64,000 nucleotides of DNA from Eledone cirrhosa (lineage: Eukaryota): assembly GCA_964016885.1 (NCBI GenBank), contig OZ024754.1:1984001-2048000 (forward strand), given 5' to 3'. Position 1 is the first letter of the stretch, and each line of letters begins with the position of its first letter. Positions 1,253 to 46,830 of the stretch are shown piece after piece. The translations under genes and the position numbers were made by a program. The notes beneath the pieces were generated by a model that worked only from the letters and a program-made list of their open reading frames with translations, was not told where the DNA came from and did no database searches.

Positions 1253-2869
1253 ATATATATATATGGGTAAATATTTGCGATTTTTAATAACGGCATTATT
1301 TTCTCTTCCTTCTGCAAAGCTATTAGCGATGGTCTCAAAAACGTGAAATGGTTAAAACCTTAGATCGAGATATCGATATATTAATGATAAATAAGTTCCG
1401 TTAATAATTTAATAATTGTTATTCCTTTTAATATTCCTACAAGTATGATTTCAGTTTTTTAGACATAATGAAATGTGAATCAAATTAGAGTTGAAATACA
1501 TTTTTAATTAGTCTTCGTCTAGTTTGACTAATTTATATTTGGAAAAATGTTTAAATCTGGTGGATTAATTATCATTCCGACTAATACCATTCCTCTTTGC
1601 TGATATATATTATAATTGCACAGTTTTTTGGCCGCCTGTCAATTGACCATTGGAGGTTCTCAAAAACGTTTTAAATTATGAGATTTTATGTAATAAAAAG
1701 GAAAAATGCCCGGACAAGTGTACTAAACTTACTAAAGTGCAAGTATTTATACAAATAATCAGTGCTTCGTCAACGGCGAGGTTTCCTCTCTCTCTCCATC
1801 CATCTATCTATCTATCTATCTGTGACTTTCACTCTCTCTCTCTCTCTCTCTCCATCTATCTATCTATCTGTCTGTCTCTCTCACTTTCACTCTCTCCCTC
1901 TATCACTTTCACTCTTCCGCTCCTATGGTTGAGCGTTGTTCTTGTTTGGTTAAAAAACGTTCTTGATTGATTAAATATCGCATCAAAAGCTTTCATCTGA
2001 AAACACCCAGTCATTTTTGAGACCTTACATCTCAGACTACATTATCTAAAGTTTCCTCCACTTTAAGAGAATACAATATCATTTCACATATATTTGGCTG
2101 TTATTTCGAAAACCCTGGCGTCGGACAACTCGCGTCATAATTTGTTCGCTGAAAATTATTCTATGTTGCCTACCCCAGACCAGAAATGTTTGACCAGATG
2201 TATGATAAAAAACACTCTAATCTTGTTTTTTTTAGATATCTTTTCATATATCAGATACTCTCATTTTTTTTTCATTTTTTTTCTTTAGGCGATATCTGTG
2301 GGAGCTGTGGGTAATATTATAGACGCTACCTCGTTGGTTTTTGTTCATTAAGAGGTTAATGATTTTGTAATGGGCAAAAGAAGCCCCATATGCTGATCTC
2401 AAATGCAATATATACGTATTTTAGAATTAGCTTAAACTATATTCTAATAGGTATCTCAATGGCTTGGTCAGAACCAGATAGCAAAATCTCGCTAACTGAT
2501 CAGCCATTTCTTTTAAGGCAAACGCAAACTGTATATCCCACAGTAGCATTATATAATAAGTGAATTGTGAATCAAATTAACTTAGGTGTATGTATCGGCA
2601 TACATGGCTGTGTCTGTATATGTGTGTGCGTGCCTGTGTGTGTCTGTGTGCGTGCCTGTGTGTGTGTGTGTGTGTGCCTGTGTGTATGGGGACTAAAAAA
2701 ATGTCTAAGGAGTGATGTCAATGTTATGTCTCTCATAAATCAACATCTGATCGGAATCTTTACATAAACAAGAAATTAATGTTTATGGAACCTAGAGAAT
2801 ATCTAATGAAGTTACAACTGCTAATATCTGTATTGATAATGACATTTATACAGATGATCGTATTGACCA

Positions 2870-44481: not shown

Positions 44482-44606
44482 GGCTGTATGCTAGTGTCTC
44501 TGTGCAACAGTGAATCGAAAGCAGCTACAGCATCAGTTTTTTGGTGGTTGTTTTTTTTTACATATTTCCATCACATCTCCGATCCAACATATATATATAT
44601 ATATAT

Positions 44607-44743
44607 AGGAACGAGTAGGACCCCGACGCCTGAGCTCAAGCCGTTTCGACGGCTAATTCTGGACTATTACCCACTCTACTACCCTAAGTATTGAGTACTT
44701 TGGCGCGTTATGGTCCATCTGGCTCCTTACCACATTTCCTTCG

Positions 44744-44745
<2 letters not shown>
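44607..44745 (+). mobile_element. Family F mini-element, copy 2
   Basis: Inverted arm plus tail AAGTATTGAGTACTTTGG..CCTTACCACATTTCCTTCGTT. In (TA)n. Confidence 0.75.
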
Positions 44746-44791
<46 letters not shown>

Positions 44792-45934
44792 CTCTCTCCC
44801 CCCTCTCTCTCTATATATATATATCAGGAAATAGTTTCCAACCGTGAACCTGCCTACTTTCATTCACACTAAATTTACATAACCCATTAAATTTACATTT
44901 CAAATTTATTTATTTCGTTGTGAAAATCAGATATAATTCATATTAATGTTTTATATTCAAATATTAAGATTTATATTTAGTTGCCAACAAAAAAAGAAAA
45001 AAAGAAAAAAAGAAAAAAAGAAAAAAAGAAAAAAAGAAAAGAAAAAAAAAGAAAAAAAAGAAGTAAATTGGCTGAGGCATGATTGTGTGAAATTTATTGC
45101 AGGTTCCGTCATTTGGGCGATGCGTGGTTTGATTTCCGCAGGCGTCACAGTCCGTCTTTATCCATCTCCACGATAATTTTCCTATCTTATTCGAATATAT
45201 ATATGGTAAATTTCTTTAAGTCGTTTGGATGCCTCGACAATGCAAATGGGTAAATCTCCGGGTAACAAGATACGGTGGTGGAGAGAGAAACGTAAGTGGG
45301 TGTACGTTGAGATGCGTGGCGTGTATAAGACGTGTAGAGGAATGAAGGAAAGAGCGTAAAGGATACAAATAAAAATAACACGAGAGAGAGTTACCTTGGG
45401 AGAGATTTAATTGTCTATATATTTCAGATTCATATCCATTAACTGGGGGTTTTTTTCCGGGGTGGGGGGAAAGGTTGTCTGTCGGAAAGGTGCGAAACGT
45501 GAATTTACTGGTATAAGAAACCGACAGGAGCCCAATGGGTAGATCTTGAGCAACGTGGTTCGATAACATTGATGAGCTTGGCTGGTCTCACTTGGGGATC
45601 TAACCGGAGACATTGCAGACGGTTTCTTCTGAAAGCACCCACAAGAAGGAGTGTTTGAGGACTGGGTAGTCTCGACCCTCAGAGGAATAAGTTGGCGAAA
45701 AGGAAGAAGAATCATTGACCAAATCAGGATTGATGGTAACATTATTAGTTATACGCACAACGGACACACACACACACACAATTTCAAGTGATCAATAATG
45801 TAGTGATAATATATCGTCACGTTAGAGATGAACAGCGTACATGTAGGTTTGCACAACGAGTTTACATTATATTCCGGAAAAAATGTAGAAAAGATGAATA
45901 GAAAATGAAAGTGCTTTTATAAAGGAATTTATTA

Positions 45935-46056
45935 GGTATTGACATATGTTTCTGTAATAGACGGAATACCTATGTATCGCTGCATGCGTAATCATATAAT
46001 GTTAGCAAGTATTCGATAGCAAATGTATAATCAGTTGTCACTTCTTCAGAGATATT
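45935..46056 (-). ncRNA. Hammerhead motif with ~90-nt stem II (minus-strand copy)
   Basis: CTGAAGA at 46049-46043 and GAAACATATGTC at 45952-45941. Confidence 0.65.
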
Positions 46057-46474
46057 GGATAAATTGGAAAAAAATCAGAAAAATTAAAGCATTTATATTA
46101 GTTGTAAGAAAGGAAGAAGAGAAGGGATAGTATATGACAGATGGCAATTCAATTTGCTGGTAAACAAGTATATAGAGGTTTTTAATGAGAATACAATGAG
46201 TATATGGCTTATTTTATCTAAATAAGAATTTTTGGGAGTGCCTATTTTAATCTGTATTTGACCAATACACAATGGACAGGGCTGGTCGTTTGGTGTAGTA
46301 GTATTAATACAAATATAAAGTGTCAAGTAAGGAAGAGAGAGATTTTCACTGCTACTGTATAACAACAATGCTGGTAGCCTGCTGGTATATGCATTAGGGA
46401 ATTGAATTAAGAAATCTCATTTTATCTATAGCAGTTTATATTAAATGGTAAAGAATAGAAGAGTTGATAGAATT

Positions 46475-46596
46475 AATATCTCTGAAGAAGTGACAACTGA
46501 TTATACATTTGTTATCGAATACTTGCTAACATTATATGATTACGCAAGCAGCGATACATAGGTATTCCGTCTGTTACAGAAACATATGTCAATACC
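46475..46596 (+). ncRNA. Hammerhead motif with ~90-nt stem II (plus-strand copy)
   Basis: CTGAAGA at 46482-46488, GTGACA/TGTTAC closing a long hairpin, GAAA at 46579-46582, palindrome CATATG, GUC ending at 46590. Confidence 0.65.
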
Positions 46597-46637
46597 TAAT
46601 AAATTCCTTTATAAAAGCATTTCATTTTATATTCATC

Positions 46638-46715
<78 letters not shown>

Positions 46716-46830
46716 TATTAGAGAATAATAATAATAATGTCCGTTTACAATTGTTTCGCTACTCCATATAATATTTCTGGATCAGATGACTATATATCAT
46801 GATTGATCTGGTTCAGTTGAAAATAATTAC

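Follow-up and report, generated by a model that had tools for sequence, protein, structure and literature searches.

A hammerhead motif with a long, covarying stem II in Hydra-clade Penelope-like elements of Eledone cirrhosa

Introduction

The window analysed here is a 64-kb stretch (64,000 nucleotides) of Eledone cirrhosa contig OZ024754.1, in which two inverted arms each hold the strands of a hammerhead core separated by 90 nt. The locus raises the question of which element it belongs to, whether the 90-nt segment is truly stem II of a hammerhead, and what so long an arm might do. A sequence-only reading had taken it for a Penelope-type hammerhead with a giant, pre-miRNA-sized stem II, whose inverted arms could switch cleavage off or supply a substrate for ADAR or Dicer. 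The role of the hammerhead for Penelope-like elements is an open question (PMC8557442, PMC11167929).

Results

Identity of the element

A first look at the 3.0-Gb genome gave 913 candidates for the arm. The motif lies inside a 697-bp repeat that adjoins an ORF with reverse transcriptase (RT) and GIY-YIG parts and Hydra motifs; in full copies elsewhere, this pseudo-LTR (pLTR) comes both after the endonuclease end and ahead of the start of the ORF. The pLTRs occur in direct and inverted orientation with a tail at one end, as in EN+ Penelope-like elements. Since Pfam returned no significant family for two ORF copies, the EN+ assignment rests on motifs. At locus L032, a stop-free frame of 735 aa contains YRDD and IYKC...YYVG.

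The features that define the Hydra clade are RWK, DKT in place of DKG, loss of conservation of GxKF/Y, CxCX5C, no CCHH, a single Cys in GIY-YIG, and CxxC and CxH around conserved E and N (PMC8557442, section 11). The L032 protein has RWK at position 46, without GxKF/Y; the DKT motif appears as ADKTS in locus L041, and the L032 copy reads AAKT. In alignment A5, the linker CxCX5C is present without CCHH, CxxC and CxH flank conserved E and N, and a single Cys lies between the GIY and YIG halves. The Hydra-clade assignment was thus made by motif definition, with the likeness to Hydra-1_Obim judged by eye, and Neptune, another clade considered, was dropped in favour of Hydra on the clade definition. 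No relative was found in viral contigs. The window's family or close relatives were also seen in contigs labelled as other organisms, at a depth too low to serve for covariation or for the range of the family.

Layout of the insertion

The insertion has the following parts.

45780 to 46476, minus strand: complete 697-bp pLTR of a Hydra-clade Penelope-like element, in element sense, with 91-97% matches elsewhere of up to about 700 bp
45780 to 45882, minus strand: tail-side segment of the pLTR (tail described in PMC8557442 and PMC11167929, where it measures 30-40 bp)
46475 to 46647, plus strand: right arm, an inverted, 5'-truncated pLTR piece with (TA)n at its end
46640 to 46718, no strand: (TA)n microsatellite, probably the target into which the element inserted; (TA)n also closes many copies of the family

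The two arms (45883-46056 and 46475-46647) are 95.4% identical across a 174-bp alignment, so the inverted arms seen from the letters alone are real. No ORF piece was found in the 64-kb window by tblastn, which makes the window copy ORF-less. Judged from these sequence features, a Hydra-clade Penelope-like retroelement has inserted here in a 5'-truncated and inverted form that lacks an ORF.

Among 95 motifs of the window's family listed from the first 153 Mb of contig C1, neighbours within 5 kb formed 15 inverted pairs, compared with 4 direct pairs; 30 of the 95 copies sit in inverted pairs, which are spaced 126-3,603 bp apart among the copies listed. Inverted 5' pLTR copies are called common for Penelope-like elements (PMC8557442, legend of Fig. 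2), hammerhead pairs on opposite strands about 100-700 bp apart are described in PMC4209133, and Hydra elements prefer (TA)n targets (PMC8557442). The mirror arrangement of the arms is therefore routine, an ordinary Penelope-like layout.

Elsewhere in the window, positions 44550-44750 hold another dispersed short repeat with a small hairpin, which has many matches in the fetched loci and was negative in the hammerhead scan. A 154-aa open stretch at 28657-29120 (plus strand) presumably resembles the C-terminal end of a LINE-type RT protein.

Hammerhead motifs in the window

Both arms carry CUGAAGA, 90 nt, GAAA, a palindrome and GUC, as the sequence-only reading had described, and C17 of the right motif falls on 46590, where it had been placed. 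Residues follow the hammerhead residue numbering.

46482 to 46488, plus strand: core strand CUGAAGA (C3-A9) of the right hammerhead
46489 to 46578, plus strand: stem II, a rod of 90 nt whose two end positions are unpaired A (1x1 junction)
46579 to 46590, plus strand: GAAA (46579-46582), stem III palindrome ACAUAUGU (46582-46589) and GUC triplet
46559 to 46598, plus strand: competing 8-bp hairpin, 46559-46566 with 46591-46598, which would mask GAAAC and the cut site
46598 to 46603, plus strand: AAUAAA, 8 nt downstream of where the right motif is predicted to cut
45941 to 46049, minus strand: left hammerhead, with CUGAAGA at 46049-46043, stem II at 46042-45953, GAAA from 45952 and C17 at 45941
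45928 to 45933, minus strand: AAUAAA, 8 nt downstream of where the left motif is predicted to cut

In the right motif, C3 is 46482, G12 is 46579, and the cut is predicted after C17 at 46590; in the left motif, on the minus strand, C3 is 46049 and G12 is 45952. All residues of the core (C3-U4-G5-A6-N7-G8-A9, G12-A13-A14-A15.1 and U16.1-H17) are present, but the Watson-Crick 10.1-11.1 pair beside A9 and G12 is missing and replaced by A.A. The core is thus not textbook, because an unpaired A lies on both sides between it and stem II, and of the canonical core claimed earlier, the conserved residues held while the junction pair did not. Rfam hammerhead families gave 0 matches in the window at the gathering threshold.

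Folded alone, the 90-nt segment formed a single rod of -21.7 kcal/mol (z = -2.6), with 3 of 200 shuffles equally stable, and the three helices named beforehand lie in this one rod. It contains 32 pairs interrupted by many loops, with a longest helix of 8 bp. The left rod is weakened by two substitutions, and its basal helix has 4 bp. The fold of the right motif in a 181-nt context had z = -0.88, and the basal stem II probability of the window's family in context was 0.03. Stem I of this family has 1 uninterrupted pair, or 4 if one C is bulged. The stem III palindrome of 8 nt has a self-duplex energy of -7.0 kcal/mol. The competing hairpin, present in the window's family and absent in its sister family, is favoured in context by 0.9 kcal/mol in a typical copy and by 3.7 kcal/mol in the window's right arm.

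Long-armed motifs in the genome

Copies were counted with patterns that use the palindrome CAWWUG, with the reversed pattern as control; other palindromes are outside the count. For arms with A.A ends, the 58-86-nt pattern matched 1,886 times (6 reversed) and the 87-116-nt pattern 1,844 times (2 reversed); arms of 72-101 nt without A before GAAA gave 5,198 matches (25 reversed). The long arms (58-116 nt) came to about 8,900 in total, with some double counting possible, compared with 33 reversed. At shorter lengths, arms of 28-57 nt with A before GAAA gave 263 matches (6 reversed), and arms of 9-26 nt gave 8,846 (8 reversed). These results indicate that the long-arm motif is not a chance pattern. 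The window's family made up 95 of the first 100 listed matches with 87-116-nt arms, and has about 1,800 copies with an intact core.

The fetched loci, which comprised an automatic set and 40 regions picked for diversity, yielded 312 matches, 156 of them distinct, in 58 clusters at 80%. Three clusters were dropped because they repeated a site already represented, reached this time through another core further upstream, and the 55 that were kept likely include chance matches and deleted copies. In 13 of the 55, an endonuclease encoded on the strand of the motif ends about 400-1,260 nt upstream of it, and another 7 are inverted beside an ORF (within the 1.5-kb flanks). The ORF of the sister family is about 72% identical to that of the window's family.

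Several other motifs were noted in the fetched loci. A short-armed counterpart (L276-L285) has the same palindrome, a U.U junction and a stem II of mostly 11-12 nt with only 2 pairs; in one example (L284:1501-1530, plus strand) the motif lies 223 nt past the end of a Hydra-type nuclease. Two families with 50- and 41-nt arms (L067-L096 and L127-L146, e.g., L090-L092 and L133) share the palindrome CUAAUUAG and a 5-6-bp stem I; some form tandem units of about 515-525 bp, no linked ORF was found in 56 loci, and they are candidates for retrozyme-like or non-autonomous elements. At L004:114-1100 (plus strand), a hammerhead with a 14-nt arm and a U.U junction lies in a 471-bp tandem repeat. L217 and L211 (clusters F10 and F20) have 93-96-nt arms with a branched, two-hairpin stem II (z = -4.1 and -4.7). 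Hammerhead-like motifs with a U3-A8 core variant (UUGAAAA, UUGAGAA) occur in other repeats at L012:794, L026, L053:837, L085 and L060.

Covariation of stem II and stem I

Across the 55 clusters, the first six pairs of stem II were paired at 0.77, compared with 0.48 when the 3' halves were permuted (0 of 2,000 permutations reached the observed value), and stem I at 0.74 compared with 0.48 (0 of 2,000). In 30 coarser groups, the values were 0.72 compared with 0.45 for stem II and 0.69 compared with 0.45 for stem I. One-sided shifts of the stem II register lowered pairing to 0.31-0.40. The register begins after a 1-nt junction on each side, which is itself paired in 0.18, a figure biased by the search patterns; the A.A junction occurs in 31 of the 55 clusters, a count that the same patterns inflate. 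Stem III and the core carry no independent evidence, because the search patterns fix them. The results showed that stem II closes the core and that, past a 1x1 junction, its pairs covary in register.

In the sister family, the rod is 92 nt long (z = -3.3) and A-U replaces G-C at its base; this family also has CACGUG in place of CAUAUG and a 5-bp stem I. The upper helices covary in one lineage of 23 sequences: 83.7% of cells were paired in a four-helix structure named by the author, compared with 27-42% in slid controls, and 17 of 25 pairs showed double changes. Of five measures, four were matched by 0 of 500 shuffles and one by 86 of 500. The alignment of this lineage leaves out the window's family. 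RNAalifold gave 0 pairs on a MAFFT alignment of 25 diverse families that included the window's, and only 8 pairs on 23 closer sequences, so for the window's family the support for the upper helices comes from folding and from one sister family. The basal helix exceeded a probability of 0.5 in context in 12 of the 55 cluster representatives, many of which are single, decayed copies.

Taken together, the long stem II is real and widespread, and recurs in dozens of families with compensating base changes. Of the outcomes by which the sequence-only reading would have been abandoned, three (no fold, no covariation, copies without the core) did not occur: the rod folds, the stems covary and 1,844 matches keep the core. 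In alignment A3, columns 39-43/84-87 and 51-54/74-76 hold near-invariant internal-loop bases (GUAUU/AGAC and GA/AGC) in one long-armed lineage, candidates for a protein contact or a tertiary motif.

The poly(A) signal and the ends of copies

In 33 of the 55 clusters, the predicted cut is followed by an AAUAAA no more than 30 nt away (shuffled mean 2.9, maximum 9 in 2,000); the signal lies upstream in 0. Among metagenome relatives, it was found in 16 of the 27 scored (29 had been picked as distinct), with a shuffled mean of 2.0, and it follows the cut in only 2 of 10 short-armed copies of the same genome. The sequence here is AT-rich and the signal shares positions with stem I, and copies run on far beyond the expected poly(A) site.

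No family copy starts at the cut site: pLTR bins 481-560 contain no 5' start, and the cut is at 536. The 3' ends of copies cluster about 60 and 160 nt beyond it. The absence of starts at the cut and the 3' ends past it are in line with uncut templates.

Comparison with known hammerheads

The Hydra-clade hammerheads of PMC8557442, including Hydra-1_oBim, share with ours the type I motif, the location in the 3' pLTR and a palindromic or near-palindromic stem III, as well as the 1x1 junction, (TA)n targets and inverted 5' copies. Many published Hydra motifs have an unpaired U.U flanking stem II (File S2 of PMC8557442), so the 1x1 junction is a known Hydra trait. Stem II of the Hydra hammerheads in that file has 3-7 bp with loops of 3-10 nt; unlike those rows, the rods described here are 58-116 nt long, have multiple helices and occur in dozens of families.

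The minimal metazoan Penelope hammerheads of PMC4209133 likewise lie in the pLTR and have an extra nucleotide after A9, a short stem I, a palindromic stem III and opposite-strand pairs; they cleave weakly and in a dimer mode. Their helix II has at most 7-8 bp and a conserved G10.1-C11.1, whereas here the first pair is free (A-U, C-G, G-C, G-U or U-A) and an extra base precedes G12. Elongation of stem II has a precedent in the spike-moss elements PLE-X1_sMoe and PLE-X1_sTam, which have the longest stem II in File S2 of PMC8557442, with a loop 2 of about 30-35 nt. That pair comprises two families of another clade, of about 50 nt and marked as deviating, and the file gives no covarying 60-100-nt rod for them. 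Poseidon PAc of Anolis (PMC11167929) also has a pLTR hammerhead and a tail signature; it belongs to another clade, and protein-assisted cleavage has been demonstrated there, whereas our motif is known from sequence. PAc cleavage needs the element's protein, and the uncut RNA is the template (PMC11167929).

In metagenomes, we found 78 loci related to the RT, 63 with a nuclease and 35 with a downstream hammerhead. All 35 hammerheads (duplicates included) have arms of 10-31 nt, and none of the 78 loci showed an arm of at least 35 nt, although many of the 28 hitless ones end too soon after the nuclease for a long arm to show. With the published Hydra motifs and all 35 metagenome arms at or below 31 nt, the sequence-only reading was right to call this a Penelope-type hammerhead with an unusually long stem II. 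An endonuclease tree (28 rows, 140 columns) placed the window's family and five other long-armed lineages in one supported group and two long-armed lineages outside it, with the L010 and L005 labels coming from neighbouring insertions; this topology fits a single origin of the long arm as well as several. In the literature searched, which covered few subscription papers, neither stem II arms of 60-100 nt nor an AAUAAA next to the cut were found described. Within that reach, the long arm with its covariation is new; the motif is real, the element type is known and the inverted layout is ordinary.

Discussion

We consider it probable that the motif is a type I hammerhead whose stem II measures 90 nt, that it would cut after GUC when two same-sense pLTRs pair through the palindromic stem III, and that its arm has roles in docking and at the 3' end. 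In a transcript of an active pLTR-ORF-pLTR copy, or between two RNAs, the palindromes would pair as a shared stem III (-7 kcal/mol), and in such a same-sense dimer this stem would outweigh the competing hairpin (0.9 kcal/mol). By analogy with other Penelope hammerheads, cleavage would likely be slow or protein-assisted. It would separate the body of the RNA from the AAUAAA that lies 8 nt further on, and so would likely affect 3'-end processing and not make the copying template. The long arm may be a lineage-specific extension kept as a rod, with internal-loop bases conserved in at least one lineage, and we infer that it is most likely a docking site for a protein of the element or of the host. 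In the window, the two motifs run antiparallel; they cannot dimerise with one another, and read-through would bury both in a 160-170-bp duplex, a by-product of the way in which the element inserts. A bolder version, in which the 60-100-nt stem II is a protein-docking add-on with conserved internal loops that gates cleavage before the poly(A) signal and the element's protein chooses between message and template, is speculative and seems to us improbable.

That the motif is derived from a hammerhead and does not cut, at least here, with its core and rod kept for protein binding or 3'-end processing, is unlikely but deserves serious weight. Stem I is broken, the junction is A.A and an 8-bp hairpin competes, yet about 1,800 copies exist; the copies appear to be made from uncut RNA, and in another Penelope element, ribozyme mutants left insertion in vitro unimpaired (PMC11167929). 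Against a motif that has lost cutting, stem I covaries in the exact hammerhead register across the 55 clusters, the sister family has the 5-bp stem I and the compensated palindrome, and the 1x1 junction occurs among canonical Hydra hammerheads (PMC8557442, File S2). A far smaller chance falls to the inverted arms being a functional antisense switch or a selected ADAR or Dicer substrate. Read-through RNA of either strand is predicted to form a duplex of 159-169 bp (about -300 to -330 kcal/mol), so this part of the sequence-only reading stands, and inverted pairs outnumber direct ones (15 compared with 4 among the 95 listed copies); however, inverted 5'-truncated pLTRs are a by-product of Penelope insertion (PMC8557442 and PMC4209133), any such insertion would yield the duplex, the 126-3,603-bp spacing is random, the 5' junctions are scattered and the window copy lacks an ORF. 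The proposed designed switch or substrate is accordingly not supported.

Drosha and Dicer act on hairpins with recognisable substrate features, and the arm, at about 90 nt and as a single rod with z = -2.6 to -3.3, could at first sight be a hairpin of pre-miRNA type, set free by ribozyme cleavage or by Drosha. Its 32 pairs are broken by many loops, with no helix above 8 bp, and the arm varies from about 57 to 101 nt with sequence poorly conserved between families, which would be unlike a guide-bearing hairpin; only the pre-miRNA size claimed for stem II is borne out, and such a product is very improbable. It is hardly credible, too, that the arm holds or borders a spliceosomal intron whose splicing makes or removes the ribozyme. 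The segment of the window's family does start with GU and end with AG at G12, the family and its sister have in common a donor-like AG/GU on the 3' side of the arm and, just beyond the pLTR, a site that resembles an acceptor, and pLTR introns that touch the hammerhead are known (PMC4209133). However, the A before GAAA is missing from 5,198 matches, the AGGU of the window's and sister families is replaced by UAGAC in other families, excision from GU to AG would delete G12, and base-pair covariation accounts for the arm without an intron. A splice acceptor (YAG) at G12 was ruled out by the same 5,198 non-A matches.

In the window's and sister families, an acceptor-like AG/TTGAGCAAC sits just beyond the pLTR, a short way ahead of the ORF (L051:770-805 and L101 near 1830-1860, plus strand), and the pLTR tail region holds TGAGCAAAC/CGAGCAAAC, which resembles it; from its sequence, it possibly belongs to a 5'-UTR intron as in other Penelope elements. 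Contigs of eight sequencing runs contained three joints, none with GT..AG ends, and were uninformative on expression and splicing.

For the hammerhead with a long stem II that we favour, the genome offers both extremes with the same palindrome (8,846 short-armed and about 8,900 long-armed motifs) and dozens of divergent sequences, a natural series on how the length of stem II bears on cleavage and protein binding. Since long arms escape Rfam and short-helix descriptors, hammerhead censuses likely undercount. That an AAUAAA stands next to the cut site suggests a concrete role in 3'-end processing. If the gating by a docked protein were true, the genome would hold a protein-regulated ribozyme in about 9,000 copies, invisible to standard scans.
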